This document shows, one piece after another, positions 3,446-36,019 of a DNA stretch of 64,000 nt. A program made the position numbers and the translations under genes. The number at the start of each line of letters is the position of its first letter. Position 1 is the stretch's first letter. A model generated the notes under the pieces. The model was not told the DNA's origin. It worked only from the letters and a program-made list of their open reading frames with translations, and searched no databases. This DNA is from a virus (Duplodnaviria; Caudoviricetes), in IMG/VR virus record IMGVR_UViG_3300021255_000041, positions 561 through 64,560 of that record, one strand, 5' to 3'.

Positions 3446-3991
3446 TTAGCTTTTAAGAGTATGAATTGCAACCGCGATCGATGCTGCCGAAGCGCCAATT
3501 GCAAGAACGTCCCCGGCTGTTGCCAAAACATCGGAAACATACCGTCTTCCGCTTGCAGCATTCTCGGTCACAGCATTCTTATAATTTCTTTCGAGATTCA
3601 TTCTGTTAATTGCATCCTGCAATTCTTTATTAGACATTTTAGATAAATCCATTGATTTGCGGATTTTTTCTTCCTTATGTCTTGCGGATCTCGATGCAAG
3701 ATTTGACGCTTTTTGTGCAGCTGCGCTAGCCGAATTCTGTGCGCTAGACGCGTTTCTATAATCAGACGCCACGGCATCGTGTATTCCAGCTTTGGCGTTT
3801 CTTGAAGAATTCGGATTGATTTTACCGGTTTCGGGATCAAAGTCAACACGCTTTGCGTTATCACTTATCTGACCCAATCTTCTTTTACCTGCTTCGGTCA
3901 GCGTCCCGTCTTCATTCTGATATCGTCGTACGCCCCACTTTTGGCCTTTTATTCCGTGATGATAAAGAACATCTGTATTATACTTACTCAT
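3446..3991 (-). CDS. HHGxKGQKWG-tag protein (DUF7211-like), putative virion cargo
   Basis: Start moved to MSKYNTDVLYHHGIKGQKWGVRRYQ (RBS AGGAGG); Ala/Gly-rich hydrophobic C-terminal helix. Confidence 0.8.
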   Translation of the reverse strand: MSKYNTDVLYHHGIKGQKWGVRRYQNEDGTLTEAGKRRLGQISDNAKRVDFDPETGKINPNSSRNAKAGIHDAVASDYRNASSAQNSASAAAQKASNLASRSARHKEEKIRKSMDLSKMSNKELQDAINRMNLERNYKNAVTENAASGRRYVSDVLATAGDVLAIGASAASIAVAIHTLKS

Positions 3992-4054
3992 GATAACCCT
4001 CCTATGGGGCCAAACGTAAGAGACCACGATTTTTTCGTAGCCTCTCTTTTTTAG

Positions 4055-4420: not shown

Positions 4421-4452
4421 TTTTTCTCTCCTCTCATAAAAGCTTTATTCTT

Positions 4453-4478
4453 TCATAAAAGGATGTGTAAAACACACG
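4453..4478 (-). promoter_or_regulatory. Phage promoter motif copy 1
   Basis: CG TGTGTTT TACA CATCCTT TTATGA. Confidence 0.7.
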
Positions 4479-4492
4479 TATAATTACATAAA

Positions 4493-4522
4493 AAAAAGAG
4501 CCTCGTTCAAGAAGCTCTTTTT
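4493..4522. terminator. Bidirectional intrinsic terminator
   Basis: AAAAAGAGC...GCTCTTTTT overlapping the stop of the 81-aa ORF. Confidence 0.65.
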
Positions 4523-4752
4523 AGCGTTTCAGGATCAACAAGCGTCGTTTTCTCGAAAAGACCTTCGCGTATAAAATCAGTAAATCCCATAAAAGTTACA
4601 TTATCCGTGTTTTTATTTACAACCCAGGTGATATTATTGTAATATTGGCCTGGGTTTGATTCTAAGCACACATAATAATTTACATCATCTTCTCGAATCC
4701 AAAAGATTTTTTCATGCAATAGCTCTTTCAAAGAACCGTATACTTTTTCCAT
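4507..4752 (-). CDS. Small protein, candidate immunity partner
   Basis: 81 aa, RBS GAAAGGAGG, directly downstream of the papain-fold ORF and followed by a terminator. Confidence 0.6.
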   Translation of the reverse strand: MEKVYGSLKELLHEKIFWIREDDVNYYVCLESNPGQYYNNITWVVNKNTDNVTFMGFTDFIREGLFEKTTLVDPETLKRAS

Positions 4753-4783
4753 TTGATCCTCCTTTCTTAAAATATAATGTTAA

Positions 4784-5731
4784 TCATGCGAAATTTACAT
4801 ATTTTTCCAAAGCATCAATATTAATTTCAGCGCCATCTAGGCGAGCAACTGTGAAAAAATCACGAGGGTTCATCATCTTCCAATATATCATAACACCGTT
4901 ATCTTTTTCACCAGCTTGGAAATCGTAAAACGATACTTTACCATCTTTAATATCCCAGTTAAAAGCATGTCCACCAGGACGTATTTTATGATCCCATTGA
5001 ATGCTGCAAACACCAGATGCATTTTGACCGAATTTATTTATCAAAAATTCAGCCGCATCTTCCGGTGATTTCCCAAATTTTACAGCACTGCCGTCTAACA
5101 CGCGCGCGCCCTTGAAACAATCTTCTATCAAACCGCCTAATAGTTGTTGATTACCGCCAGTTCCCTTCGCCGTGACATCATATCCAGCCATTCGCAGAAA
5201 GCCGGCAACTGCGCAATTCGTGCAATTGTTTTGACCTTCCAAAGTACTGCGTAATGGGTTCGCCTTGGCTAAGCTTTCGCTTAATGTTTCCTTACTAGCT
5301 AAACGTTTTAAACGCGAGGCGCTTTTACCGGCAACATCACTAAACGTTTCTTCGACAGAATCAACATTACCGACAAGTTTATGCTGTTTCATAAAAGTAT
5401 CGGTAACTATATTTTTGCCTATATTAATGTTGTTGTCAAGTATTCCAGACTGATACAGTTTATATCCGCCGTACGCAGCCAATGCCGTTCCTACGGCAGC
5501 AGTCCCAATCTTCAAAGCTCGTTTCTGATTATCCGTAAGGCTATATCTATCGGTACCGCCATCCTTTTTATTGTTTCTTTTATCTTTATCCAGGCTTTTT
5601 CGCCAGCCAGCTCGTCGTTCTGAAGCCGAATGATCGGATTCGCCCAATGGATATGGAGGGCCGTTTCTACGTCCCCACTTCTGCCCTAGAATCCCATGAT
5701 GATAAAGATAAGAAGGACTATAATTACTCAT
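4784..5731 (-). CDS. HHG-tag protein with C-terminal papain-fold (Tox-PL-like) domain
   Basis: Start MSNYSPSYLYHHGILGQKWG (RBS AGGAGG); NNC170TNC, GGH255AF, YD270FQ give a Cys-His-Asp triad. Confidence 0.75.
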   Translation of the reverse strand: MSNYSPSYLYHHGILGQKWGRRNGPPYPLGESDHSASERRAGWRKSLDKDKRNNKKDGGTDRYSLTDNQKRALKIGTAAVGTALAAYGGYKLYQSGILDNNINIGKNIVTDTFMKQHKLVGNVDSVEETFSDVAGKSASRLKRLASKETLSESLAKANPLRSTLEGQNNCTNCAVAGFLRMAGYDVTAKGTGGNQQLLGGLIEDCFKGARVLDGSAVKFGKSPEDAAEFLINKFGQNASGVCSIQWDHKIRPGGHAFNWDIKDGKVSFYDFQAGEKDNGVMIYWKMMNPRDFFTVARLDGAEINIDALEKYVNFA

Positions 5732-6080
5732 CAGTATCCTCCTGACTATCGAAGTCGGCCTGTATTTTAAGACGCCATTCAAACTCGTTGATCTGCTGCC
5801 GAATGACATCAATCACAGCGCCGCTCAAAGGCGGATCAAAAACAAGTTTAACTTTGAGAAACATGTACGATTTGACCAGCTGCAGCTGAGTGCTCTCCGG
5901 TATAAAATTTGTCCAGTTTTCGTCTTTGCCGGTTATGGCGAACCCATCTGTCGGTCCAACTCCGAGCTGGTGTAATATCATGAATACGGAGTTTATGTGC
6001 ATAATCAGATCCGCGTCGAAATGCTCATACTCCTCCGTGATGCCGAGCATCTTTTTTATAGAGGTCAATATACTTTCCAT
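5724..6080 (-). CDS. Head-tail connector/adaptor-like protein
   Basis: 118 aa MESILTSIKKMLGI...HINSVF, helical adaptor-like sequence in the packaging region. Confidence 0.55.
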   Translation of the reverse strand: MESILTSIKKMLGITEEYEHFDADLIMHINSVFMILHQLGVGPTDGFAITGKDENWTNFIPESTQLQLVKSYMFLKVKLVFDPPLSGAVIDVIRQQINEFEWRLKIQADFDSQEDTDE

Positions 6081-6863: not shown

Positions 6864-6910
6864 TAAGCACCCCGCTCTTAAGACTTTTCTTATAGTTTTG
6901 CTGTACTTTT

Positions 6911-7012
6911 ACAGTACTTAAATAGACCCGCAAACAGAAGCAACCACACCAAAGTCGAAAGGAGGAAAGCACTTATCGAACATACAGCTTTGCGGGCCTG
7001 TTTAAACACTGC
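6911..7012 (-). ncRNA. Long-stem RNA hairpin with anti-RBS loop (candidate trans-acting sRNA)
   Basis: 24-bp stem (6911-6934 with 6989-7012) with 4 G-U and 1 mismatch on the minus strand; 54-nt loop contains the reverse complement of the 32340-32371 mRNA leader. Confidence 0.65.
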
Positions 7013-7040
7013 AAATATCTTAAAAACATTTCATCAAATT

Positions 7041-7110
7041 TTCCCCCGGAGAATTTTTAAAGACCGGGGCGATCATAGAGGGGGTGGTTGTTTTTGAGAC
7101 CCCCCTCCCC
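7041..7110. other. Candidate cos/genome-end region
   Basis: Non-coding G/C tracts and inverted repeat GAGGGGG (7078-7084)/CCCCCTC (7101-7107) between the last early gene and terS. Confidence 0.4.
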
Positions 7111-7177
7111 TATGTAATCGACCAGTTACGGTGTTGCTTCGAGATCAACACTCACAGTGTCAGCGAATTTCGAGCAA

Positions 7178-7444
7178 TTATTGGGAATAAAACTCTTCAT
7201 CAGTCAATTTCTTCTTAACCTTTTTGTAGATATTCAAGAAGTCATATTTGATGATTTCGTCAATTGCGCGCTCAATTTCTTCATTATTCTCTTCATCTGT
7301 GAATTGACTTGAAGTTTTAGCAATTCTTGCTAAGTAGCCACAAGAGTTGTATCCTTTTTCGACATCATACAAGAACCATTCGCGAAAGTTATCGAACGGA
7401 TCAAACGGATTATCGAAAGTCGTTAAAGCTGCAACTTCATGCAT
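7178..7444 (-). CDS. Hypothetical protein downstream of RNAP
   Basis: 88 aa with RBS, LTTFDNPFDPF motif. Confidence 0.75.
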   Translation of the reverse strand: MHEVAALTTFDNPFDPFDNFREWFLYDVEKGYNSCGYLARIAKTSSQFTDEENNEEIERAIDEIIKYDFLNIYKKVKKKLTDEEFYSQ

Positions 7445-7462: not shown

Positions 7463-10234
7463 TTAACTTTCTTTGTATTTGTTTACAGTTGACACTGAAA
7501 CACCTAAAGCATCAGCAATTTCCTGATTTGTGTAACCAGAAGCTTTCATTGCCTGGAGCTTATTTATTTTAGCTGGGGTCATTGTTTTTGCCGTACGAGG
7601 TGTAGCTCTTTTTCTAAGATCATCACCGTCAACATACTTAATAATCTGACGCAATTTGTTTTCTGATATTGCACCAGACTGAATTGCTTCCCATTCACGA
7701 TCAGAAAGCTTAATCGGCTGTCTTAGTGCGCCGACTCTGATTCGAGCAGAAGTCAGTTCACGTTGAGCAATCTTCTTAAGTTCTTTCTTTTCGATAGCAG
7801 GATTGTCCTGTTTTATAGCATCAACACGGGCTTTAGTCATGATCTGGGCGGTGCGCTCTCTAGGGGCGTTTTTAAGTGCCAGGTTGAGCCGGGAGTCAAG
7901 AGAATCTGCCTCTTTCTTATAAACTTTATTAGCAGAGGGGGAGTATTCTATACGCCCGGTATTGATCATCTCTTTGCGGGCCGAGTTTGCCATAGCCTTA
8001 AGGTTATTGGCATAGTTAGCATAGGCCAGCTCCACAGGGGTACGCCGGTTGGATACAAGGGTCATAGCGTCCGATGTCTCCATCATAGCGTTACTCTTCT
8101 GAGTCCTGGTAATTACTTTGCCTTTCTTATTGACATATGTCAGATTGTCAGCTGTTTTCCAGGAAACTGAGCCGTCCTCATTAATAATGGGGCTACCCTG
8201 TCTCTTAGGTACTGACCTCTGTGACTTGGCACGGGAGATGATAGTGGCGGCACCTTCGTGATACTTACCGTCTTCCCCTATATGTCCCTGATACTTTCTC
8301 TTAAGCTCAGCAATGTGGTTCTCCTTCTCGCTGCGCTTATAGTCCAGGTTATGCTTGTATGCATCAATAACTACCATATTGTGCATTGTCGCCCAGGCAA
8401 GTTCCTTTTCGGTCGCACCAAACTGGGTCATATCGCTCAGAAGGTTCGACACAGTGCCCATCTCTTTCTGAACAGCACCCTTGTTCATTCTCTTGTAGGG
8501 AACCGAGGTGCTGCCTGGACCGTATTTGTCTTTGGCATCGAAGCCCTCTAAGTCTTTGAGAGGCGGCGTCGACTGGACTTTAACTCTGTCCGATAATGGT
8601 ATGACCATAACGGTATCACCGTCAAAGTCAGCTCCGGACAGACGATCCGCAGTAGCCTTCGTAATACCGATCGCATCTTTCGGGTTCGTACCAATAACAT
8701 CTTTGCCTTCCTGCACTTTGTTGTTAACTTTGCAGATAGGGATCTGATAAGTACCCTCATGCGGGAATCTGACAAGAGCTACTCTTTCGCCGTCTCTGTA
8801 GTTAGGCGCATAGACCTCGTTATCGTTGATTGTGGTCAAAGGAAGGATGACCTGATAACTCTGACGAGGAAGTGACGCACCCTGCAGATGGACCGCAGCA
8901 GAATCGCAGTCATCCGCAAAGGACTTAAGAAGCTCTTTCTTGACCGTCGGATTGGTCAGCGATCTGATCTCCTCAAGTTCCATCTTTTTATCCGCAATGG
9001 ACAGATTGAGCTGGTTATTAATAAGCTTCATATCCTGCTTAGCAAGGAACTGTGATGGCAGCTTATTCTTCCAGTCCCCCCAGTCTCCTTCATCGCCACG
9101 TTTATTGATCAGTGAAAGGTGCTCTTTACCGTCGTCTCCTTCATAATAGCTCTGACCGCCTACTTCTTTGATCAACGACCCAAATGGGTTCTTAGGGTCG
9201 TCTGTAATCTGCTTCAATACCGAATGGTCTTTCGGTCCAAGAGCGGGAGTTCCTTTCTTCTTGTTGGTGTTAAACATGACGTCCACGCCATCAGGAAGGT
9301 TGTCGGAATATATAGCCATGCCCTTGAGGTAATGAGTACCATCGACCAGGATGCGAACCTGTGCGTAATGACTGTCTCCGAGAGAAAGGTCTTTTACACC
9401 TCTACGGATCTCGATCACGCCATCCTTCGCTTCACCACCATCTTCGGCGTAGCGAATAGCCAGTCGCTTTGAGTCCATGCTTGCAGGATATTCAAAGGCT
9501 TTTCTGATTTCCCGTCCATTGTCGACAAGGATCTTGTCGTAGTCCTTAAGCGAATGTACGTCTTCGAAGTTGTAAATGTCTTTATGCTGCGTACCGGGAG
9601 GACATAACACTTTAAGGTTGGTCTGTCTTCCGGGATTGGTTGCCTGAGGTACGCCACCGCCATAGACCTCGTATCCTTCGGCCTTGAGCAATTCAAGAGC
9701 CTGGTCGAATTTCTCTTTGGATACATTGCACTCACGCTCGACACCAGCACCAACATCGATCATACCTTTCTTATTCACAGCTTCTCTGAGATAATCGGCA
9801 GTGACCTTTGCGCTGTCCATGCGTGCTTCTGCATTCTCATTGAGAAGCGATCTGATGGAGGATTCACTGTTATAACCCATTTCTTCTGCGATCTGGGTTC
9901 GCGTTAAGCCTTTTTCCTGAAGCTCTTTTGCTTTGGCAACTTTGGCTGATCTTTCCTCGTTTTTAGCAAGGGCATAGTAAGCTCTGAACTGAGTGGTTGA
10001 TAAATTCAAAGACTTGGCAATGGCTGTATCACCTTTGAAGGTTTCGCCAGTATCAGGATCCGTCCAGGTGAATCCTTCTTTACGCATCTTCTTGACACGA
10101 CTCACGAAATCGCCGCTATGCTGATTGGGATTTTCACCGCTGCCCAATGGATATCTGCCTGATCCACGTCCAGGTGCTCCGTCCATTTTACTGACACCGT
10201 AGTGCATTAAGATGTCTTCAGCCACTTTGTTCAT
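7463..10234 (-). CDS. Single-subunit two-barrel (double-psi) RNA polymerase with HTH domains
   Basis: GADFDGD at 8615-8629 (D536-D540), R489FPH, AQVRILVDGTHYLKG (RdRP-type QxR..KG); HTHs at N- and C-termini. Confidence 0.8.
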   Translation of the reverse strand: MNKVAEDILMHYGVSKMDGAPGRGSGRYPLGSGENPNQHSGDFVSRVKKMRKEGFTWTDPDTGETFKGDTAIAKSLNLSTTQFRAYYALAKNEERSAKVAKAKELQEKGLTRTQIAEEMGYNSESSIRSLLNENAEARMDSAKVTADYLREAVNKKGMIDVGAGVERECNVSKEKFDQALELLKAEGYEVYGGGVPQATNPGRQTNLKVLCPPGTQHKDIYNFEDVHSLKDYDKILVDNGREIRKAFEYPASMDSKRLAIRYAEDGGEAKDGVIEIRRGVKDLSLGDSHYAQVRILVDGTHYLKGMAIYSDNLPDGVDVMFNTNKKKGTPALGPKDHSVLKQITDDPKNPFGSLIKEVGGQSYYEGDDGKEHLSLINKRGDEGDWGDWKNKLPSQFLAKQDMKLINNQLNLSIADKKMELEEIRSLTNPTVKKELLKSFADDCDSAAVHLQGASLPRQSYQVILPLTTINDNEVYAPNYRDGERVALVRFPHEGTYQIPICKVNNKVQEGKDVIGTNPKDAIGITKATADRLSGADFDGDTVMVIPLSDRVKVQSTPPLKDLEGFDAKDKYGPGSTSVPYKRMNKGAVQKEMGTVSNLLSDMTQFGATEKELAWATMHNMVVIDAYKHNLDYKRSEKENHIAELKRKYQGHIGEDGKYHEGAATIISRAKSQRSVPKRQGSPIINEDGSVSWKTADNLTYVNKKGKVITRTQKSNAMMETSDAMTLVSNRRTPVELAYANYANNLKAMANSARKEMINTGRIEYSPSANKVYKKEADSLDSRLNLALKNAPRERTAQIMTKARVDAIKQDNPAIEKKELKKIAQRELTSARIRVGALRQPIKLSDREWEAIQSGAISENKLRQIIKYVDGDDLRKRATPRTAKTMTPAKINKLQAMKASGYTNQEIADALGVSVSTVNKYKES

Positions 10235-10896
10235 CGTTGCTCCCCTTTCTCGATATTACTCACAAAAGAATTGATGGCTACAATCCGATCCATGATCGGA
10301 AGAATAACTTCGAAACCCGGATTTGCGATGAGGATGTCATCGGATTGATACAAACGAAGCTCTATCTCCGTCGGCTTCGCTTTGTACTCCAAACAAAAAA
10401 GAGCAGCGTATACTTCAAGCTGCTCCATGTGTGCCGGATGGTCACCGGTCTTCAAATCATGAATTTGTAATCGATCATTCCTGTAAGAGATCGTATCGGC
10501 AGTGCCGAAAAAGAAATCAGAATAAACAAGTTTCTGTTCCGGTTTCATCTTGAAACTCACACCATCATTGATGTAGTGCTTGACCGTTTCATAAACGATG
10601 TCCGGTAAGTAGTTTAGGTGTTGTAGCAACACCAGTCCGTAAGCGAGGTTGTCAAGATGCTTATATTTAGTATAAATATAATTCTCGACAGAATCCTCTA
10701 ATTTCTTGACTCCGGAAATCCGATGCCCCAACTCAATCTGGGAAGCAGCGAATTCATGGATCTCTGTGCCGATCAACGATCGGTATTGACTTTGGAACTT
10801 GTTAATAATTTTGTCGCCATCGTATCGCAGCCATGCGCTTTGACTTGGTGGAAACAAAGCGTGGCCCTCAACATCTGAATGCTCGTTGAAGATCAT
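10231..10896 (-). CDS. PD-(D/E)xK exonuclease (Cas4/lambda-exonuclease-like)
   Basis: GTEIHE, GTADTI, IHDLKTG, QLEVYA motifs. Confidence 0.75.
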   Translation of the reverse strand: MIFNEHSDVEGHALFPPSQSAWLRYDGDKIINKFQSQYRSLIGTEIHEFAASQIELGHRISGVKKLEDSVENYIYTKYKHLDNLAYGLVLLQHLNYLPDIVYETVKHYINDGVSFKMKPEQKLVYSDFFFGTADTISYRNDRLQIHDLKTGDHPAHMEQLEVYAALFCLEYKAKPTEIELRLYQSDDILIANPGFEVILPIMDRIVAINSFVSNIEKGEQR

Positions 10897-11173
10897 TAAG
10901 TACTTCCTCCTTGTTCTCAGGACATATGAATCTTGAGAAAGACATCTTGTCCATGAGTCCTACATAGTAACTTTGATTTGGTTGCTTCTTAGCCTTGGTG
11001 GTTTTCTTGCATTCTAACGTTGCCCATTTGTTTTTGTACAAAACTAAGAGATCGGGTATCCCCTGCAGGTAACCCGAATCGAGTTTCATTACAAGGCATC
11101 CTTTAAAAAGCTTTTCAAGTTCTTTTATCAGCTTAGCCTGAAAGTCTCGTTCGAGTTTCGAATTATCAGCCAT
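10868..11173 (-). CDS. VRR-NUC domain nuclease
   Basis: ERDFQAKLI, GIPDLLVL, LECK, QPNQ motifs; start MADNSK after RBS GAGGAGG. Confidence 0.8.
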   Translation of the reverse strand: MADNSKLERDFQAKLIKELEKLFKGCLVMKLDSGYLQGIPDLLVLYKNKWATLECKKTTKAKKQPNQSYYVGLMDKMSFSRFICPENKEEVLNDLQRAFRC

Positions 11174-11229
11174 GGAATATCCTCCTCTAAACAAAAGAGG
11201 GGAAGTCGCGTTTATATTCTATCTTCTCC

Positions 11230-11255
11230 TCATAAAAGGGCGTGTTATTTTTGCG
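11230..11255 (-). promoter_or_regulatory. Phage promoter motif copy 2 (heads the nuclease-RNAP operon), followed by hairpin and U tract
   Basis: CG CAAAAAT AACA CGCCCTT TTATGA; hairpin 11197-11231. Confidence 0.7.
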
Positions 11256-11319
11256 AAGGATTTTTGGGCAAAAATAAAAGGCCCGCCAATAAGCGAGCCC
11301 AATTCATATCAATAAGTTT

Positions 11320-11643
11320 TCAATCGTCATCTAGTTCCCCGTGAACTTCCTCATACATTTCGTATTCATCGTCGTCATCATCGTCCTCGTCATCGTCCTC
11401 GTCATCGTCCTCGTCATCAGGAAATATTCCTTCACGTGCGAGGACCTCTTCCTCAGTAGGATATAATTCATCATACTCTTCATCGGTAAAACCATAGTGG
11501 TCTAAGTCGTCGGAATTACCACAGTTCGGACACACCAGAGTGTCTTCGTTATCATCTTCGAACTCCATTCGTGCTCCGCATTCTCTGCAGTAATATCCGC
11601 CACCATGTAAACCTCTAATCAATGCGTCGTTGAAAAAATCCAT
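11320..11643 (-). CDS. Zinc-ribbon protein with highly acidic tail
   Basis: CRECG...CPNCG, then D/E-rich tail partly encoded by a 12-bp tandem repeat x3 (11378-11413). Confidence 0.75.
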   Translation of the reverse strand: MDFFNDALIRGLHGGGYYCRECGARMEFEDDNEDTLVCPNCGNSDDLDHYGFTDEEYDELYPTEEEVLAREGIFPDDEDDDEDDDEDDDDDDEYEMYEEVHGELDDD

Positions 11644-11711
11644 TTCTTCATCTCCTTTCTTTAAAATATAATTTTATGAAAGGTAGACAAAGAGCTCTTT
11701 ATCACTTCCCT

Positions 11712-11737
11712 TCATAAAAGGGTGTGTAAATTTGAGT
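11712..11737 (-). promoter_or_regulatory. Phage promoter motif copy 3 (lacks CG)
   Basis: AC TCAAATT TACA CACCCTT TTATGA. Confidence 0.55.
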
Positions 11738-11741
11738 AGCT

Positions 11742-12332
11742 CTACTCAATGGTCACGGAAGTGTCTATTAGTTTCTTTTCGACCCTTGCCATAACATCGA
11801 CATAATACTTGTAGTCTTCGGCACTCAGATTATCCTCATTATATGAATCAATCTTCGTCGCAAAGTCTGCGTAATCAGACATTAAAGACGTATACTTTGC
11901 TAACATGGTGGGATTGGTCGCGTCATACGACTGCATAAAGTCACAATAGTCATTCATGAACGATTCGTAAGAATCCATATATTCTTTGAACTCCGGAGTC
12001 ACACCGCCAGCGTCGGCGGCAGGAGCTTCAGTCTGCTTGTTTGTCTGCGCCTGAGTAGAAGAGGCCGTCTCCGTTGTCTTTGCAGTTGTCTCCTTCTCAG
12101 TTGTCTTTGTCGGTATCACGGACGCGACTTCCGACGGAAGCTTGTCAGCAACCTTGTTGACCATACCATTTTGATATGCGTAATACCCGGCGCCAACAAT
12201 TATGACAAGCAACAGAAGATTTCTAAAAGCATGACTCTTCTTTTGCTTTGCTCCACACTGAGGACATTTCTTTGCGCTCTTCGCTATCTCCGATCCACAG
12301 ACCCTGCAGCGAACCAATTTATCACGTGACAT
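11742..12332 (-). CDS. Zinc-ribbon single-pass membrane protein (DUF6591-like C-terminus); lysogenic-conversion candidate
   Basis: CRVCG..CPQCG, TM helix LLLLVIIVGAGYY, T/E-rich linker, FKEYMDSYESFMNDYCDFM domain; own sigmaA promoter. Confidence 0.75.
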   Translation of the reverse strand: MSRDKLVRCRVCGSEIAKSAKKCPQCGAKQKKSHAFRNLLLLVIIVGAGYYAYQNGMVNKVADKLPSEVASVIPTKTTEKETTAKTTETASSTQAQTNKQTEAPAADAGGVTPEFKEYMDSYESFMNDYCDFMQSYDATNPTMLAKYTSLMSDYADFATKIDSYNEDNLSAEDYKYYVDVMARVEKKLIDTSVTIE

Positions 12333-12818: not shown

Positions 12819-13046
12819 TCAAAGACACATATCGTAAAATATTTCAATAGCTCTTCGAACCACTGCACTCTCTGAAATCTGATGGTAAAAAGCAAGCTCT
12901 TCAATGTGAGTTTTTTCTTTTTCTGTCAATCTAATGCCCATGTAATACTTTCTACCATTATAACGCTTAGGTCTCCCCCTCTTCTTTTTCTCCTCCAAAA
13001 TCATCATCCCTTCTTCCATCAAAGACTCTGTCAAGGAACCCTGCAA
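12819..13046 (-). CDS. Small DNA-binding protein (ribbon-helix-helix/AT-hook-like)
   Basis: KKRGRPK, MGIRLTEKEK...ISESAVVRRAI; next to the iterons. Confidence 0.55.
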   Translation of the reverse strand: MQGSLTESLMEEGMMILEEKKKRGRPKRYNGRKYYMGIRLTEKEKTHIEELAFYHQISESAVVRRAIEIFYDMCL

Positions 13047-13671: not shown

Positions 13672-13938
13672 TCAAGCTCTTTCTCCATCAACAGCCTCCA
13701 GTTCACTGTAATATCTCCTGTTCCAGGCATCGGCAACAACATCGCACGCCTCCTGAGACTTCGATGAGCAGCCATAATCCGAGATTTTTACCCTCCCGGA
13801 CCGTGCGTTACACACTGTACACCTCACAAAGGCCACTTTCGTGGTCTTCCCATCGATGAAAGCCCGGTGTGACTTCTCCAGATACGCTCTCCCCCCGCAA
13901 AACGGACATTTTTTCAGTCTCTTGATCGTAATTCTCAT
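13672..13938 (-). CDS. Lar-like restriction alleviation protein
   Basis: LKKCPFCGG...VRCTVCNA...AWNRR signature. Confidence 0.7.
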   Translation of the reverse strand: MRITIKRLKKCPFCGGRAYLEKSHRAFIDGKTTKVAFVRCTVCNARSGRVKISDYGCSSKSQEACDVVADAWNRRYYSELEAVDGERA

Positions 13939-30324: not shown

Positions 30325-30356
30325 TTTTTCCTCCTTTGGAATTTGAATTATAGTCT

Positions 30357-30382
30357 TCATAAAACTGCTTGTTTTTTTCGCG
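30357..30382 (-). promoter_or_regulatory. Phage promoter motif copy 7
   Basis: CG CGAAAAA AACA AGCAGTT TTATGA. Confidence 0.7.
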
Positions 30383-30384
30383 AA

Positions 30385-31167
30385 TCAATGCAAGGATCTG
30401 AAATCCGGCCTTGGGGCTATCCGATAGTCGACGACCAGGCACGGTACGCCGTCCTCATCAAGCTGAGCACTGAACTCCATGTCGATCAGTCCGTCCTCGA
30501 TATACCACCCGATGTCGTCACCATCTTTTACCGGGGAAAGCCCTATCTCGTAGTAGTATTCGTTCAAAGAAATAAACATCTCGCTGAGAAGGCGTTTATT
30601 CAATTCATTCTCAACCCGTCTCAGCTTTTCAATATCGGACTTAAACCTTCTGGCTCTGAAAGTATCGAAGCATCTGGTTTCGCCTCCACCGGTAATGATT
30701 ATTTCTTTATTGACCAGAGGTTCCCGCTCAAGATGTTCTTTTGCGATAGCATCTCTCACATCCCGCTCTTTTTTCTCGCCGACGGTCTCGATCACCTTTT
30801 CCTGGTATTCTTTGAGCGCCGTCTCGGTCATGGTGTAAGCGGTCGCGAGTGCTGTATTGCGTCTTTTGTTGATGGACTGTCCACCAATGATGCAAGCTGA
30901 TGACGCCACACCAGATAATGCCGTCGGGACATAGCACGTCCAAGTAGCTTTGACTGTATCTGCCGTAGACAATTTATCGGTTTTCAGTTCCTTCTTCTTT
31001 TTCTCGATCCTCTCCATCGCCTTCGGTGTAGCTCTGACTGCGAGCACAACGGTTAACAGCATCCCGGCAAGACCAAGACCCGTCAGAATCTCCGGACTGT
31101 TCTTCTTATAGCCATTAACCAATGATTTACTGGCCTCTGTGGCACATTTCAAAAAGCTCATACTCAT
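30385..31167 (-). CDS. DUF6353-like protein (paralog 2)
   Basis: KNSPEILTGLG, YVPTA, ALATAY, ISLNEYYYEIG..IGW. Confidence 0.7.
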   Translation of the reverse strand: MSMSFLKCATEASKSLVNGYKKNSPEILTGLGLAGMLLTVVLAVRATPKAMERIEKKKKELKTDKLSTADTVKATWTCYVPTALSGVASSACIIGGQSINKRRNTALATAYTMTETALKEYQEKVIETVGEKKERDVRDAIAKEHLEREPLVNKEIIITGGGETRCFDTFRARRFKSDIEKLRRVENELNKRLLSEMFISLNEYYYEIGLSPVKDGDDIGWYIEDGLIDMEFSAQLDEDGVPCLVVDYRIAPRPDFRSLH

Positions 31168-31478
31168 TCCCCTTCTAAATATGAATAATCATCGTTTAAT
31201 ACATCCACCGCACAGAGCCCTATGTCATATGCGATGGAGAATATAAAACTGTTTTTGTTATCGACTGTAGACAGCTCATCCATCGTCTTGCAGAATTTCT
31301 CGACAACAATGCTCGGCGGCTCTGGCGACTCAATGATTTCGCTCATAAGCTCCTGCAGCGCCCATCTCTGATAAGACAGATTTACAAAGCGCAGGGTTTT
31401 CATACCCACTTTCGGTTCATCGAGATAGTCTTCGCCGAACTTTTTCAATTTAGACAGGACGAGCTGCTTGTATGTCAT
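31164..31478 (-). CDS. Hypothetical protein
   Basis: Start MTYKQLV after RBS AAGGAGG. Confidence 0.6.
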   Translation of the reverse strand: MTYKQLVLSKLKKFGEDYLDEPKVGMKTLRFVNLSYQRWALQELMSEIIESPEPPSIVVEKFCKTMDELSTVDNKNSFIFSIAYDIGLCAVDVLNDDYSYLEGE

Positions 31479-31709
31479 ACCGTCCTCCTTTCTCAAAAAT
31501 AAAAGAGCCCTTTTCAGGACTCTTCATCTTTTTTGTTTTCGTTTTCTTTTTTCGCCAGCTCGTCTCTGACGATTTCTCGCACCTGCTCCTCGGCCGCTTT
31601 GCTACCAGCCCAGTCACACAGCATCGACGCCGCGAAACCAAGAGCTGATCCGCCAAGACCGACGAGCCTCATGACATTTTTATTCATCATTCTTCCGAGC
31701 TACCTCCTT

Positions 31710-32339
31710 TCATAACACAAGGTGAAATTTTTGCGAATGAAAACTGAAACTGTAAATATGATTGCTGAGCACGTCGGATGGATCGAGAGTCTTGTTCACT
31801 TCCTCGACTATGTCTCTCAGAAACGCTGGATTCTCAATGTCCTCCGCCGGCACAAACATCAGCTCATGAATGCTTGAGGGAATCACGTAATACTCTCCTG
31901 CCGGTAGACCCGAGATATACTCCGGATAAAGCATCAATACGCCTCCGTTATACATATCTTTTGAACCGACTACGTAAATCGGCGTAGACGAATCCATGTC
32001 AAACGGCAAGAATACGTTGTTTACACTGTAGAGTATCTCATCCAGCAAACGCACACAAACATCCATGTTTCGAATGGTGTTCGTGTATGCCATATCATAG
32101 AGCAAATCGAAGCTGACTCCCAGGAACTCCAGAGCATCGTTCTTCACTGTCGCCACGCACTTTGACCCATCAGGAAAATCGCCAAAGTTAATCTTGATGA
32201 TTACGGCGATATCCGGGAATGGTAGCAGGCGATGCGGTACCTCTTTGAGCATCTCAACGTTGTTGTCATAGTTTACGAGTTGCAAAAACGTTCTACCGGG
32301 AATATCCTCCTTTCGAATTTTGGTTAATCCTTCACTCAT
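31710..32339 (-). CDS. DUF5688-like protein; putative sRNA target
   Basis: YYVIPSSIHEL, VEEVN, VLSNHIY signature; leader complementary to the 6942-6973 hairpin loop. Confidence 0.75.
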   Translation of the reverse strand: MSEGLTKIRKEDIPGRTFLQLVNYDNNVEMLKEVPHRLLPFPDIAVIIKINFGDFPDGSKCVATVKNDALEFLGVSFDLLYDMAYTNTIRNMDVCVRLLDEILYSVNNVFLPFDMDSSTPIYVVGSKDMYNGGVLMLYPEYISGLPAGEYYVIPSSIHELMFVPAEDIENPAFLRDIVEEVNKTLDPSDVLSNHIYSFSFHSQKFHLVL

Positions 32340-32369
32340 AGTACTTTCCTCCTTTCGACTTTGGTGTGG

Positions 32370-32525
32370 TTAATATATACATTCATGCAGTAATACTGCA
32401 TTGCGCTTTGAGTTATACTCGGCTGACACAGCCTCATGCTCGTCACCGATCAATTCGTGTACCAATAAAACGATCGCGTCGCCAGGCATATCCGCGATCA
32501 GTTCTTTCAATTCATCAACCGTCAT
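32370..32525 (-). CDS. 51-aa hypothetical protein (not in ORF track)
   Basis: MTVDELKELIADMPGDA...; RBS GGAGGT. Confidence 0.6.
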   Translation of the reverse strand: MTVDELKELIADMPGDAIVLLVHELIGDEHEAVSAEYNSKRNAVLLHECIY

Positions 32526-32537
32526 TTTCATACCTCC

Positions 32538-33176
32538 TTAACTAGCGAGCGATAAACCAAGCTCAGCGAGTTTCGACACGATTTCCTCGTAACTCCGCTG
32601 TCCGAGATTCCGAATACCAATGACTTCGCCAGGTCTGAGCTGTATAAGATCACCTATCGTCTCGATACCGCGTCTTGTGAGGCAGTTGTAAGTTCTTACA
32701 GACAGGTTTAACTCGTCGATACCAGATTCACTGATGTCTGGTTCCGGTATAAGCTCTACGACTTCGCCAAGCAGATATTCAAGTCGTTCGTTTTCCTTTT
32801 TCAGTTTCTCGTTTTCGACACGTAGGTCGCAGGCTGCCTGCATGGTGTCGAAAGTCCATTTAATACGTCTTCTCGGATGTCTAAGCTTGCGAAGCGCCTT
32901 GGCCTGTATTTGCTGAATGCGTCCTCTTGATATGCCAAATTCTTTTCCGGTGCGCTCTAACGTAAAGCCCTCTTCAAAACGGTAAAAAAGCACCTTTTGC
33001 TCCCTTTCAGTCAAATCCGACAAAGTCTCAAGAAACCCTGGAACATATGCTTCATATACCTCGTTTCGCATGTCTTCGTCCGGAAGATTGAACGGGTTGC
33101 CTATCACAGCGGCAATTAAGTTGTACGGATAAACTTTTAAAATGTCGACTTTGATTGTAGGTTGTTTGCGGCTCAT
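32538..33176 (-). CDS. Sigma70 region-4 / RNAP alpha-CTD fusion protein
   Basis: [11 protein letters not shown]...[30 protein letters not shown] (sigma4); [22 protein letters not shown]...[14 protein letters not shown] (alphaCTD). Confidence 0.85.
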
Positions 33177-33237
33177 CTAAATTCTCCTTTCTGCAAAAGC
33201 ATTGACAAAAAATAAAAGAGAACCGTCATTGTGTTCT

Positions 33238-33263
33238 CCATAATAAGCTTTGTAAATTTTGCG
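33238..33263 (-). promoter_or_regulatory. Phage promoter motif copy 8, followed by hairpin and U tract
   Basis: CG CAAAATT TACA AAGCTTA TTATGG; hairpin 33218-33238. Confidence 0.7.
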
Positions 33264-33284
33264 AAGAAAAAGAAAAGGAGTCGC

Positions 33285-33473
33285 TTAGGACCCCTCCTCG
33301 TTTTTGTTTCGTTTCCGTATAATAAGGTATCTTATGATGATACCTAATACGCCAATACATATGATCACATCGCCGAATACGATGAGTCCCACGGCTCCGG
33401 CCAAACCGGCCACAATCACCGTAAAGATCACCAAAAATATCAATGTGATTGTCAATATGGTTAGTAGTATCAT
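33285..33473 (-). CDS. Cassette gene, small membrane protein
   Basis: 62 aa, two TM helices. Confidence 0.7.
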   Translation of the reverse strand: MILLTILTITLIFLVIFTVIVAGLAGAVGLIVFGDVIICIGVLGIIIRYLIIRKRNKNEEGS

Positions 33474-33488
33474 GATAGATTCCTCCTT

Positions 33489-33514
33489 TCATACAAGGAG
33501 CTGTATTTCCTGCG
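33489..33514 (-). promoter_or_regulatory. Phage promoter motif copy 9
   Basis: CG CAGGAAA TACA GCTCCTT GTATGA, immediately followed by RBS AAGGAGG. Confidence 0.7.
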
Positions 33515-33556
33515 GGAAAAAATAAAAGCCCATGCGTTTTGCACAGGCTTTTGATG

Positions 33557-33748
33557 TTATTTTTTCTGTACCGTCTTCACTGACACATCGTAGTTGTTGC
33601 TGATCCCCCTCCAGAGGACATACAAAGTTTTGTCGTCTGCCACCGACTTCAGGTCGCGTTCGACACGAAACCTCTCAAACGCAACGCCTCCCATGAAAGC
33701 AGCCACGAACACGACAAAACGCACAAGCCTTTTGATTTTTTTCAGCAT
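33557..33748 (-). CDS. Cassette gene, small membrane protein
   Basis: Start MLKKIKR after RBS AAGGAG. Confidence 0.65.
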   Translation of the reverse strand: MLKKIKRLVRFVVFVAAFMGGVAFERFRVERDLKSVADDKTLYVLWRGISNNYDVSVKTVQKK

Positions 33749-33779
33749 ATAAAACTCCTTTCTGCAATCAGTTATTACT

Positions 33780-33805
33780 TCATAAAGAGCCATGTATTTC
33801 CTGCG
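33780..33805 (-). promoter_or_regulatory. Phage promoter motif copy 10
   Basis: CG CAGGAAA TACA TGGCTCT TTATGA. Confidence 0.7.
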
Positions 33806-33831
33806 GGCAAAAATAAAAGCCCTTGCAGGGC

Positions 33832-34053
33832 TTAAATCTTTGAAATCACCCCCTTCAAAATGTTATTTAGTTCATCGCGTTGGATATCTGTAGTCGCGCC
33901 AAGAATTATACGAGCTTTATCGTCGAAATTGAAGACCTGTAATTCGGTGATCTGAATATCAATATCATATCCGATTTTCTTTTTAACAATTTTCTTCAAT
34001 ATCTTTGATATAATAGTTTGCATAAATTTCGACTCTAAAATCATTTGATCCAC
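33832..34053 (-). CDS. Cassette gene (73 aa)
   Basis: GTG start after RBS AAGGAG. Confidence 0.65.
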   Translation of the reverse strand: MDQMILESKFMQTIISKILKKIVKKKIGYDIDIQITELQVFNFDDKARIILGATTDIQRDELNNILKGVISKI

Positions 34054-34084
34054 GATTTTCTCCTTTCTGAAACAGGTTTATTTC

Positions 34085-34110
34085 TCATAGGAGCCATTGT
34101 GAACTCCGCG
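34085..34110 (-). promoter_or_regulatory. Phage promoter motif copy 11
   Basis: CG CGGAGTT CACA ATGGCTC CTATGA. Confidence 0.6.
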
Positions 34111-34238
34111 AAAAAGACAAGAGGCCCTGTTTCCAGAGCCCGCAAGATATGTTTTTGGATGTGAAGCAGATATGGTAATGGCGGGCGCAACTCCGCCGGA
34201 TGTGAAATACGCCTGCTACCAGGTCAACCTCCTTTCCA
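34111..34238 (-). ncRNA. Cassette with promoter and terminator but no clear ORF (candidate small RNA)
   Basis: After AAAGGAGG there is no ATG/GTG start; GGCGG/CCGCC hairpin, TTCACATCC x2, terminator at 34111-34142. Confidence 0.4.
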
Positions 34239-34261
34239 TAACATGCCTTGCAAATTTTGCG
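34236..34261 (-). promoter_or_regulatory. Phage promoter motif copy 12
   Basis: CG CAAAATT TGCA AGGCATG TTATGG. Confidence 0.7.
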
Positions 34262-34300
34262 GACAAAAAGAAAAGGGCCCGTAAACCGAGCCCAGATCTC

Positions 34301-34369
34301 TTACTTCCGATTGTCGACTATAATAAGAAATACACAAATGATAATCCCGATACAAGCAATTAACGTCAT
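34301..34369 (-). CDS. 22-aa hydrophobic peptide (not in ORF track)
   Basis: MTLIACIGIIICVFLIIVDNRK; RBS AAGGTG; ATGA overlap with the upstream ORF. Confidence 0.55.
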   Translation of the reverse strand: MTLIACIGIIICVFLIIVDNRK

Positions 34370-34482
34370 TCCGTATCACCTTCTTTCCGATTCACGAGTT
34401 TCTGCACCGGCTCAACGATGCAAACAACCCAGCAAAATGTCCAGAACGAAATCTTCAAAACTTCAATTAAACGCTTTTTCAT
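34366..34482 (-). CDS. 38-aa membrane peptide (not in ORF track)
   Basis: MKKRLIEVLKISFWTFCWVVCIVEPVQKLVNRKEGDTE; RBS AAGGAG. Confidence 0.55.
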   Translation of the reverse strand: MKKRLIEVLKISFWTFCWVVCIVEPVQKLVNRKEGDTE

Positions 34483-34512
34483 AGTAACTCCTTTCTGTAC
34501 TAAATATAGTCT

Positions 34513-34538
34513 CCATAAAGGAGTCTGTATTTTTTGCG
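34513..34538 (-). promoter_or_regulatory. Phage promoter motif copy 13
   Basis: CG CAAAAAA TACA GACTCCT TTATGG. Confidence 0.7.
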
Positions 34539-34556
34539 AAAAAACAGGAGCCCTTG

Positions 34557-34853
34557 TTAGGACTCCAACCGAATTTCACAGTTATCCAAATCGGTATCCG
34601 GAAATGCGGCGTAACCATTATTCGCATAGTTGTATTCTTCCGTAAGTTTGGTATATTTTCCTTCAAATACTTTGTAGCGTTCTAACTCCTCACAAAGATC
34701 TTCGTATCGTCCTTCGGACTCCATATAACGTTCCTTCCAGACAAACGCTCTCTCTTGCCAGAAGTCAATTTCGCTATCATCATGCTTGATGACAAAAATC
34801 ATAACCAATACTCCTGCAATCAGTAACATAAGCAAATCAAGTGGTCCTGCCAT
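34557..34853 (-). CDS. Cassette gene, membrane-anchored coiled coil
   Basis: Start MAGPLDLL after RBS AAGGAGG. Confidence 0.6.
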   Translation of the reverse strand: MAGPLDLLMLLIAGVLVMIFVIKHDDSEIDFWQERAFVWKERYMESEGRYEDLCEELERYKVFEGKYTKLTEEYNYANNGYAAFPDTDLDNCEIRLES

Positions 34854-34885
34854 TTTCTTTCCTCCTTTGAAATAGGATAATAGTT

Positions 34886-34911
34886 TCATAAAGGGACGTG
34901 TGTTTATTGCG
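34886..34911 (-). promoter_or_regulatory. Phage promoter motif copy 14
   Basis: CG CAATAAA CACA CGTCCCT TTATGA. Confidence 0.7.
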
Positions 34912-34971
34912 GACAAAAAATAAAAGCCCATGCGTTTTGCACAGGCTTTAACTTTGTTTGGCAGTTACAAA

Positions 34972-35400
34972 TTACTTTCTCTTACAGATTTTGAATGACT
35001 TAGACAAGCCATCCACTTTCTGGGCCGCTCGGGAGCTAAATGTCCCAGTTTCTTCGAACCGTAAGTAACGCTTGTGCCAGGTCCAGGTTGCTAAGTATTC
35101 CAGCAGGAACATTCCACCGCTCAACCCGATCTGGAACCAACGATTCCGTTTTTCGTCTTTTGCTTCCTTCTCTTTGAGTTCCTCTTCCTGCTTCTGATGG
35201 GCTTTGTCCATCTCTCTACGGAAGCACTTCTCATCGAAGTCGCAATCAACCTTAACCTCGTCAATTCCGAGTCGGTAGAGCTTGGTAATGTTCTCTACTG
35301 CGGCTGTCTCCTCCTCGGATCCAGGCAACGAGTCTCTTAAGTTCTGAAACTGAGACATAATAGCCTCGTTCAACCCTTCGGTTATTCTCTCGTCCATCAT
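34972..35400 (-). CDS. Cassette gene (142 aa)
   Basis: RBS GGAGG; FEETGTFSS near the C-terminus. Confidence 0.7.
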   Translation of the reverse strand: MMDERITEGLNEAIMSQFQNLRDSLPGSEEETAAVENITKLYRLGIDEVKVDCDFDEKCFRREMDKAHQKQEEELKEKEAKDEKRNRWFQIGLSGGMFLLEYLATWTWHKRYLRFEETGTFSSRAAQKVDGLSKSFKICKRK

Positions 35401-35435
35401 TTTTCAACCTCCAAAATAGTAAGTTATTTATAGTG

Positions 35436-35461
35436 TCATAACAGGACTTGTTATTTCTGTG
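35436..35461 (-). promoter_or_regulatory. Phage promoter motif copy 15
   Basis: CA CAGAAAT AACA AGTCCTG TTATGA (overlaps the upstream stop codon). Confidence 0.6.
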
Positions 35462-35666
35462 GGTTGTCCAGGATTTGGACAGTCAGGGTCACAATGTCTC
35501 CCTCTTTGAGGGACTCTGCACTGACGTGCTTAAGAGACATATATGTGTAATACCCATCCTCGTCATGGGCGATCAGCATGTCTCCGTCGGTTTGAGCGGC
35601 CTGTGTCGCTTTGAGAAAAACGGTCGTTGCCGCAATGGTGATTAAAACTAATGCGAAATAAGTCAT
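35451..35666 (-). CDS. Small membrane-anchored protein
   Basis: 71 aa, N-terminal TM, RBS AAGGAGG. Confidence 0.65.
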   Translation of the reverse strand: MTYFALVLITIAATTVFLKATQAAQTDGDMLIAHDEDGYYTYMSLKHVSAESLKEGDIVTLTVQILDNPQK

Positions 35667-35715
35667 GGTTTCCTCCTTTGCTCAAAAAGAAAAAGCCCTT
35701 GCGGGCTTAATCTTG

Positions 35716-35922
35716 TTAGATGGCTAATCTGCCATAGTTTTTATTGTATGGATATATTTTTCCATTCGTGACTTCTCTCTCGGGTTTACAGAACGGGCAT
35801 TCGCCGTCCTTATACTTTGCGTGTGCATTTAAGCAGTTGCAAAGCACTTTGTCGGGTAAATCCTTTATACTGTACTTTCCGAAACAAGGTCTGCTGTCAT
35901 TACAAGTTGGTACGTATCCCAT
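35716..35922 (-). CDS. Cassette gene, Cys-rich (68 aa)
   Basis: C..S.PCFG...CNCL...CPFCKP; RBS AAGGAGG. Confidence 0.65.
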   Translation of the reverse strand: MGYVPTCNDSRPCFGKYSIKDLPDKVLCNCLNAHAKYKDGECPFCKPEREVTNGKIYPYNKNYGRLAI

Positions 35923-35956
35923 ATTTTCCTCCTTTATACATAATTAGCAATCAGTT

Positions 35957-35982
35957 TCATAATATGAGATGTTAATTTTGCG
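35957..35982 (-). promoter_or_regulatory. Phage promoter motif copy 16
   Basis: CG CAAAATT AACA TCTCATA TTATGA. Confidence 0.7.
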
Positions 35983-36019
35983 TAAAAAAATAAGAGCCTC
36001 CGTAGTGGAGACTCCCATG

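Follow-up and report, generated by a model that had tools for sequence, protein, structure and literature searches.

A single-chain two-barrel RNA polymerase, recognised by its predicted fold in a temperate phage, and its association with a private promoter-like motif

Which enzyme is encoded by a long phage gene that sequence databases mostly name after a helix-turn-helix (HTH), and from which sites would this enzyme work? In this study, we explored this question for a 923-residue open reading frame (ORF), which begins with ATG and occupies 7463-10234 on the minus strand of a 64,000-nt stretch of tailed-phage DNA (Duplodnaviria; Caudoviricetes; positions 561 to 64,560 of IMG/VR record IMGVR_UViG_3300021255_000041), referred to as the window at its full length. 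The original prediction, drawn up from the letters alone, had placed the ORF correctly and had read its product as a single-chain two-barrel RNA polymerase (RNAP) with built-in HTHs. We could confirm the polymerase assignment at the level of the predicted fold, and we additionally observed a promoter-like motif that accompanies the gene through distant relatives.

The motifs behind that reading are present in the translation, with QVR at residues 292-294, KG at 304-305, RFP at 489-491 and DFDGD at 536-540, and the three HTH-like strings were found at residues 72, 115 and 906. Conservation was assessed in an alignment of the ORF with 89 homologues of 44-69% identity. Across these 90 sequences Q292, R294, K304, G305, R489, P491, D536, D538, G539 and D540 are invariant, so that the motif strings cannot be regarded as chance occurrences, and D271, E275 and D282 are at least 90% conserved. 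Hallmarks of the two-barrel superfamily are an invariant R-x-P upstream of the aspartate loop, equivalent to Rpb1 R446/P448, and, in the beta-like barrel, two invariant basic residues (Rpb2 K979/K987) together with an acidic residue (Rpb2 D837) (PMC2919709). Judged from the alignment, the invariant residues of the ORF appear to correspond to this universal superfamily set of Ruprich-Robert & Thuriaux (PMC2919709). The ORF and its catalytic motifs are located as follows:

7463..10234, minus strand: whole ORF, 923 aa plus stop codon; matched over its full length by phrog_4291, AlphaFold2 (AF2) model as described below
9320..9361, minus strand: QVRILVDGTHYLKG, residues 292-305, basic-residue motif of the first (beta-like) barrel; Q292, R294, K304 and G305 invariant
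8762..8770, minus strand: RFP, residues 489-491, R-x-P of the second (beta-prime-like) barrel; R489 and P491 invariant
8615..8629, minus strand: DFDGD, residues 536-540, metal-binding catalytic loop; D536, D538, G539 and D540 invariant, inside a sub-threshold Pfam RNA-dependent RNA polymerase (RdRP) match at 528-558
7964..9490, minus strand: two-barrel catalytic core, residues 249-757; aligned by VIA-align to QDE-1, RDR2, P74-26 gp62 and Rpb1-type chains

The AF2 model computed from the 90-sequence alignment reached a predicted local distance difference test (pLDDT) score of 88.4 and a predicted template modelling (pTM) score of 0.81. All 26 Foldseek matches of this model in the PDB at E<=1e-3 are two-barrel polymerases, among them QDE-1 (E 5e-9), P74-26 gp62 / P23-45 gp64 (E 5e-6), RDR2 and, more weakly, P23-45 gp96 (E 1e-3), with crAss gp66 (E 8e-3) and then Rpb1-type chains falling below the cut-off. 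In BFVD, which holds viral predicted structures, every significant match is likewise a two-barrel RNAP. Residues 249-757 were aligned by VIA-align to QDE-1 with a Z of 15.5 (357 residues aligned, 4.4 A), to maize RDR2 with 15.4 and to P74-26 gp62 with 14.1, and residues 450-660 to Rpb1-type chains with about 10.9. Structure prediction followed by Foldseek, the check proposed together with the original prediction, thus yielded a model that has the two-barrel fold and groups with QDE-1, RDR2 and Thermus phage RNAP, and fold searches with it return single-chain or multi-chain enzymes of this superfamily only, as the claim of a two-barrel RNAP had implied. At the sequence level, Pfam RdRP (PF05183) scores 14.6 bits against a gathering cut-off of 23.8, at residues 528-558 only, and a PDB sequence search with the ORF returned a 55-aa HTH protein as its only match.

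In these fold searches of the predicted model, the ORF appears closest to QDE-1/RDR and P23-45 gp64. QDE-1 from Neurospora and plant RDR2 are the best structural matches of the core, over about 360 residues, and carry DxDGD in the second barrel, but they share only 10-16% identity with the ORF, lack HTH or winged-helix modules and act in RNA silencing. P23-45 gp64 / P74-26 gp62 (PDB 8f72, 8f5m) resemble the ORF as small single-chain enzymes, with Z scores of 14.1 and 11.7 for the pair over about 360 residues. The P23-45 non-virion RNAP reads its own non-sigma promoters upstream of early and middle genes (bioRxiv 10.1101/2022.12.01.518664). These proteins differ from the ORF in their size of about 600 aa, the lack of fused HTHs, their origin from a virulent thermophilic phage and an unrelated GC-rich promoter.

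HTH modules built into the polymerase chain had also been foreseen, and they are borne out by Pfam at the C-terminus and by weak to middling structural matches at the N-terminus. The three individual segments fared differently. The C-terminal one (894-922) is well above the Pfam cut-off for HTH_3 (31.6 bits, cut-off 23) and passes it for HTH_23, HTH_7, HTH_24 and GerE as well, with Sigma70_r4_2 at E 3.7e-5. The second (about 105-133) is weakly supported by sub-threshold HTH_28 and PHROG regulator matches at 103-149 and by a structural similarity, likewise weak, to the DNA-binding domain of DeoR (Z 6.7). When residues 40-250 were modelled separately (pLDDT 92.3), two helix-turn-helix units were seen, and for the first segment (68-90) this predicted geometry, assigned by DSSP in both models, is the sole basis. 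Absent from the earlier list of HTHs is a helix-plus-wing unit at residues of about 140-225, which matches GntR-type, TFIIIC and RPC34 winged helices with Z of 6-7.7; such middling values may reflect a common arrangement alone. These regions flank the core:

7466..7963, minus strand: helical C-terminal region, residues 758-923, ending in a sigma-region-4-like HTH (894-922, nt 7469-7555); Pfam HTH families
9764..10108, minus strand: residues 43-157, HTH-like units at 68-90 and 111-133, both with a long helix after them; DSSP, sub-threshold profiles, DeoR match
9491..9763, minus strand: residues 158-248, helices and a beta hairpin, winged-helix-like together with helix 133-156; domain model, GntR/TFIIIC/RPC34 matches

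The ORF belongs to a large family. The profile of phrog_4291, named 'RNA-dependent RNA polymerase', covers residues 2-922 (E=0, 1173.8 bits); orf75 of phage 1706 (1029 aa) is 36% identical over its full length (E 8e-166), FP_oengus gp55 47.5% and the RosaAsantewaa polymerase 45%. More generally, 1706 orf75, FP_oengus gp55 and the actinophage HTH proteins are full-length homologues at 36-49% identity, and like the ORF they combine DxDGD, RxP and QxR..KG with HTHs at both termini and an N-terminal HYG...SGRYPxGSG peptide. Nothing categorical separates the ORF from its PHROG 4291 relatives; it comes from an integrase-carrying Clostridia phage and is shorter than its 1706 counterpart. We found members in 250 phage records and in genomes of 309 bacterial species, with at least 8000 clusters at 90% identity and 2156 clusters at 50% identity. 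At the nucleotide level, a megablast search of phage records with the first 25 kb gave no match. It had been anticipated that such a protein would be annotated for its HTH only, and most database entries are indeed named 'helix-turn-helix DNA-binding protein'. RefSeq lists 1706 orf75 and FP_oengus gp55 as 'RNA-dependent RNA polymerase', a name which, in PHROG as in RefSeq, is probably wrong for the family.

The original prediction had asked for a literature check on the family. The phage 1706 protein was listed in 2010 as one of five 'YonO-like' families (Ruprich-Robert & Thuriaux, PMC2919709), and Koert et al. described in 2021 an 'HTH domain-containing protein' with DxDGD and HTHs at both ends in a supercluster of actinophages, Lactococcus and Faecalibacterium phages, reporting an HHpred match of the family alignment to RdRP at 95.7% over 286 columns (bioRxiv 10.1101/842583). 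The family is therefore already described computationally, and the novelty given to it in the original prediction is overstated. The two family papers (PMC2919709; bioRxiv 10.1101/842583) make no mention of a promoter motif or a virion label, and our literature searches for biochemical work on the family found no study. A survey of Arthrobacter phages likewise yielded nothing on an RNA polymerase, an HTH protein, a promoter, a conserved motif or mass spectrometry.

YonO of SPbeta resembles the ORF as a single-chain two-barrel DNA-dependent RNAP of a temperate phage (839 aa, with the DxDGD-type loop FDNDGD), but shows no detectable sequence relation to it, and terminal HTHs are not reported for YonO. 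Membership of the ORF in the YonO family was considered and rejected: hhalign of the 90-sequence profile against YonO gave a probability of 0.2 and an E of 0.29, aligning an unrelated 19-residue stretch only, where the use of YonO as a single sequence limits the sensitivity. Because this comparison gave no match, we do not file the ORF in that family.

Where such an enzyme would start transcription is suggested by a motif in the same phage. The pattern CG-N7-HRCA-N8-TATGR has 14 exact matches in the window, compared to 0.34 expected, all of them on the coding (minus) strand. A position weight matrix (PWM) for the private motif, CGC-N7-ACA-N8-TATGR, finds 19 sites of at least 20 bits, again on the coding strand only, three of them outside the training set, and no site above 10 bits on the opposite strand of the window. 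A T-run immediately precedes most copies, and a start codon equipped with a ribosome-binding site (RBS) follows them at 12-68 nt, typically about 30. Only 1-2 nt separate TATGR from the start of the RBS in five cassettes, so that transcripts must start at the TATGR block or upstream of it, and TATGR can therefore not serve sigma-A as a -10 element with its usual spacing. The copies are distributed as follows:

11226..11257, minus strand: best motif copy, CGCAAAAATAACA-N8-TTATGA, at the head of the VRR-NUC/exonuclease/polymerase operon; PWM 37.4 bits, the window maximum
30353..35984, minus strand: eleven copies of 32 nt, starting at 35953, 35432, 34882, 34509, 34232, 34081, 33776, 33485, 33234, 31706 and 30353; PWM 22.8-34.1 bits
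11708..19145, minus strand: five copies of 32 nt, starting at 19114, 18748, 17999, 17764 and 11708; PWM 25.1-33.2 bits, 17999 outside the training set
4449..4792, minus strand: two copies, 4761-4792 and 4449-4480, in the head-module 'cargo' region; PWM 20.0 and 28.4 bits

The group of eleven belongs to the early region near attP; most of its members directly follow a T-run, with a start codon 15-61 nt further on. In the head module, the copy at 4761-4792 precedes a small ORF that follows a toxin gene, with an RBS directly after the motif, and the copy at 4449-4480 precedes genes for proteins of 121 aa and 193 aa. A leader hairpin after the candidate promoter at 11226 folds no better than shuffled sequences (z -0.46), so that we give the idea of an attenuator little weight for this phage; the leaders of FP_oengus (z -3.3) and MT835495 (z -2.1) perform better.

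The spacing of TTCGCA-N17-TATGAA led us to consider a sigma-A promoter, which we rejected as the main reading, as the conserved letters are not those of sigma-A and the position of the RBS leaves no room. Another candidate was a 212-aa protein at 32538-33176 (minus strand), which combines sigma-70 region 4 (Pfam E 1.4e-17) with an RNAP alpha C-terminal domain (E 4.7e-21). No homologue of it was found in the four related phages compared, and we therefore rejected this sigma4-alphaCTD protein as a conserved reader of the motif.

The motif is not restricted to the window. RosaAsantewaa, a lytic Streptomyces phage, contains six copies of TCGCAAG-N3-TACA-N9-ATGAGACCCC in the same geometry, on the coding strand at the start of the early region, with none on the opposite strand and none in shuffles. 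Phage 1706 contains eleven copies of a variant, CRCA-N5-TACA-N5-TATAGTAGA, in which the spacing is 3 nt shorter. For a broader view, we collected 80 related loci from bacterial genomes (1.47 Mb), 79 of them with enough upstream DNA. Over the 80 loci, the PWM gave 170 matches on the polymerase strand and one on the other, and in 77 of the 79 the polymerase start is preceded by a copy at a distance of 906-1506 nt (median 935), with 61 distinct sequence versions represented. The polymerase is the only recognisable transcription protein common to all compared phages. Over a range that extends from prophages of gut Clostridia to a lytic phage of Streptomyces, the sequences thus point to a pairing of polymerase and motif that is an association, not proof. 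A separate observation concerns the 448-nt gap before 1706 orf75 (about 51640-52060), which contains three to four iteron-like repeats CTATCACGAAAAAAC, three of them followed by one or two TTCGGGA units.

We propose that the enzyme is a DNA-dependent transcriptase in which fused modules replace sigma, and that it reads the private promoter and transcribes the early and middle cassettes together with its own operon, a reading we hold to be quite probable. In place of sigma, the fused HTH/winged-helix modules would contact the CGC and ACA blocks, whose separation is about one helical turn, and RNA synthesis would start at or beside the TATGR block. A comparable arrangement is known from the non-virion two-barrel RNAP of phiKZ, whose (-3)TATG(+1) initiator overlaps +1 (PMC7618050). 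If the enzyme starts at TATGR, the early and middle cassettes and its own operon would consequently be transcribed, resulting in positive feedback. The sigma independence of the polymerase is a property we infer.

The original prediction had additionally listed a cargo tag for the polymerase, and this part of it stands only partially. The N-terminal peptide LMHYG...GRGSGRYPLGSG is present, is predicted to be disordered (pLDDT mostly < 55) and holds six positions that are invariant in the 90-sequence alignment (G13, S25, G26, R27, G31 and G33). It has LxH[HY]G and YPLG[SE] in common with a DUF7211-tagged 342-aa protein of the same phage. The 25-residue model of that tag, PF23847 (DUF7211), matches this protein, a 193-aa protein and orf7 of phage 1706, with which the polymerase has only LxH[HY]G and YPxG[SE] in common; its bearing on the polymerase is taken up below. 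A literature search on DUF7211 found no mention.

10109..10234, minus strand: residues 1-42, LMHYG...SGRYPLGSG, candidate packaging or partner-binding tag; disordered, conserved

The two DUF7211-tagged proteins of the window are encoded between connector and terminase at 3446-4027 and 4784-5812 (minus strand); the 342-aa protein also carries a papain-fold glutamine deamidase toxin domain, and the other has 193 aa. In all three tagged proteins of the phage, exactly 11 residues can precede [HY]G if the nearest Met is the start.

EU081845, the GenBank entry submitted for phage 1706 by its depositors, gives orf75 the label 'structural protein', which lends indirect support to virion carriage. The orf75 gene lies far from the structural module. 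The labels of this record are of the kinds 'putative ...', 'unknown' and plain 'structural protein', the last being given to orf6, 7, 11, 12, 17, 20, 21, 71 and 75 (the RefSeq copy gives orf62 the same label). The phage 1706 paper reportedly identified virion proteins by mass spectrometry, and we treat the label as a lead; a review of lactic-acid-bacteria phages gave no information on the virion proteome of 1706. The 1706 orf7 thus unites the DUF7211 peptide (PF23847) with a 'structural protein' label. Polymerases that act on early genes after being carried in the particle are represented by gp66 of the crAss-like phage phi14:2 and P23-45 gp96 (both two-barrel) and by the T7-like N4 vRNAP, which may share a common strategy with the enzyme described here. 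They differ in coming from virulent phages and in their build, being either of much greater size or joined to other virion proteins, and gp66 and gp96 match the ORF only weakly in fold (E 8e-3 and 1e-3). Packaging of the polymerase and its ejection with the DNA is, on a roughly even balance, probable.

Taken together, these elements would mean that a portion of the enzyme is synthesised late and enters the head, and that it leaves the particle along with the DNA and starts transcription in the next host. An induced prophage would have to obtain its first copies of the enzyme through host RNA polymerase. The complete self-seeding circuit, in which widespread siphophages of Clostridia, Lactococcus and Actinobacteria hosts, both temperate and lytic, use a 100-kDa sigma-free polymerase that locates a 26-bp promoter by its HTH and winged-helix modules, target the enzyme to the capsid through a DUF7211-related peptide and eject it to activate its own operon and the early genes, is possible, and we put it forward tentatively.

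Several observations weigh against the transcriptase reading or its virion-seeded extension. PF23847 gave no match to the polymerase among the best 25 of 27 Pfam families at E<=1, so that the tag of the polymerase is not covered by the model of its neighbours' tag. RefSeq dropped the 'structural protein' label of 1706 orf75. A temperate phage cannot rely on a virion enzyme alone at induction. No early-type motif was found upstream of 1706 orf75, and FP_oengus and MT835495 contain two strong motif copies each, one of them before the VRR-NUC/exonuclease/polymerase operon; with so few copies, the enzyme need not run the whole early programme. FP_oengus additionally displays another repeated motif, the 9-mer TTGATATTT, with 11 copies on the coding strand and none on the opposite one, which may be its main promoter, possibly a host-type extended -10. 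Finally, polymerase and motif are linked in these sequences by co-occurrence, and the motif could have another reader, either a host factor or one of the small conserved proteins of phrog_4303, 4259, 2152 and 4079.

The scarcity of copies in FP_oengus and MT835495 and the situation at induction, where the phage must start from a prophage in which virion protein is absent, would also suit an enzyme that acts in the manner of YonO, made by host RNAP and not packaged, and transcribing its own operon and the late operon by read-through. In SPbeta, the late genes form a single operon that YonO transcribes (PMC5467207); here, the polymerase gene lies directly upstream of the packaging and head genes on one strand, and the motif copy kept in nearly all relatives is the one heading the polymerase operon. 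YonO itself reads a single late promoter, the sequence of which is not known, and the phage studied here has about 19 private sites, most of them ahead of early and middle genes. Against a YonO-like role, most copies in this phage, in RosaAsantewaa and in 1706 precede small early-region genes and not late genes. Such a role would further leave the label of 1706 orf75 unexplained and the invariant disordered N-terminal peptide without a function, and we regard it as rather doubtful. The virion-seeded and YonO-like timing models are nevertheless compatible and not exclusive.

It is unlikely that the motif is read by host RNAP together with a phage factor, or serves as a repressor or activator site, with the polymerase acting elsewhere. 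The sigma-70-like spacing in this phage and the mere co-occurrence with the polymerase would allow for this, as would several small conserved proteins of unknown function that are common to the same phages. However, sigma-A does not use the conserved letters, namely CGC, an ACA within the 'spacer' and a TATGR with A/G instead of T at its end, the spacing is 3 nt shorter in 1706, and in five cassettes the distance from -10 to +1 would not fit between TATGR and the adjoining RBS. The motif moreover persists in Streptomyces phages, although promoters differ in their hosts, the relatives lack the sigma4-alphaCTD protein, and sigma-70-type sites are not enriched (14 compared to 12.8 expected). A further reading, suggested by the name given in PHROG and RefSeq, in which the enzyme copies phage transcripts into double-stranded RNA or primes recombination-dependent replication together with the VRR-NUC and RecB-like nucleases, draws on the closest solved structures being QDE-1 and plant RDR2; QDE-1 is active on DNA as well as on RNA templates (PMC9508822). 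The order VRR-NUC/exonuclease/polymerase is also kept in MT835495, which is without the replication genes of this phage. All characterised phage members of the fold (YonO, P23-45 gp64, gp96 and crAss gp66) are DNA-dependent transcriptases, though, the phage already has a primase-polymerase, the HTH modules and the promoter-like motif fit recognition of double-stranded DNA, and the Pfam RdRP match stays far below its cut-off, which renders a role on RNA or as a primase highly improbable.

The sequence of the phage comprises 64,560 bp with a 107-bp terminal direct repeat, from which we conclude that it is a circularly assembled phage and that the window is nearly its whole genome. Every confidently assigned gene of the window lies on the minus strand. 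Their order is holin, tyrosine integrase (36790-38061), small genes, primase-polymerase, helicase, single-strand annealing protein, VRR-NUC, RecB-like exonuclease, polymerase ORF, 88-aa ORF and a 314-nt gap, followed by a 115-aa ORF, HNH endonuclease, connector, the two tagged proteins, large terminase and portal. The integrase, together with relatives that sit inside bacterial chromosomes, e.g. in a 3.5-Mb Hungatella hathewayi contig, leads us to agree with the original prediction that the phage is temperate. Next to the polymerase gene lie:

10231..11194, minus strand: VRR-NUC endonuclease (10868-11194) and RecB-like exonuclease (10231-10896), in the same orientation as the polymerase; phrog_93, phrog_3953
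7178..7444, minus strand: 88-aa small protein, phrog_4303, directly after the polymerase gene; homologue in the same place in four of four compared phages

The VRR-NUC, exonuclease and polymerase genes are apparently co-transcribed, and their order is kept in FP_oengus, phage 1706, RosaAsantewaa and MT835495. PHROG 4291 phages also share the wider arrangement of VRR-NUC, exonuclease, polymerase, small ORF, HNH, connector and terminase. The gene-free gap of 314 nt (6864-7177) separates the 88-aa from the 115-aa ORF. In the cos phages RosaAsantewaa and 1706, the homologues of these two ORFs flank the physical genome ends, and for this reason the gap is probably a cos/packaging site rather than an RNA leader alone.

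Directly upstream of the polymerase operon, two zinc-ribbon proteins are encoded at 11320-11643 and 11742-12332 (minus strand), one weakly TFIIB-type and the other DUF6591, neither with homologues in the four compared phages; the motif copy at 11708-11739 precedes the first member of the pair, just after the end of the second. Further upstream, a poorly coding stretch contains a 75-aa repressor-like HTH ORF (phrog_876, 12819-13046, minus strand) and an 88-aa Lar-like restriction-alleviation ORF (phrog_599, 13672-13938, minus strand). The primase/DNA polymerase (phrog_4210, a profile of 1304 positions) is split into two minus-strand ORFs within 21540-25760, of which 23013-25760 covers profile positions 1-922 and 21540-22895 positions 918-1288, with 117 nt between them; it is undivided in FP_oengus, phage 1706 and RosaAsantewaa. 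In the cultured strain Cuneatibacter caecimuris DSM 29486, two contigs each hold a polymerase gene, and the two genes differ, so that the strain probably harbours two related prophages.

The family bears on how the smallest two-barrel RNAPs find their promoters, a question that work on YonO did not settle. With a compact enzyme that carries its own DNA-binding modules and a defined candidate promoter of 26 bp, it lends itself to simple testing in vitro. Hundreds of isolated actinophages are at hand as material, as are phage 1706 and lysogens of cultured gut strains such as Hungatella hathewayi WAL-18680, [Ruminococcus] torques ATCC 27756, Blautia faecis DFI.3.66 and Cuneatibacter caecimuris DSM 29486. 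DNA-dependent transcription is probably the true activity of thousands of database entries that bear the name 'HTH domain protein' or 'RNA-dependent RNA polymerase', and a small orthogonal pair of polymerase and promoter would be a useful tool. If virions of temperate phages do carry the enzyme, this would be a new kind of lysogeny control, and under the self-seeding circuit the prophage of a lysogen would be silent largely through the absence of its polymerase.

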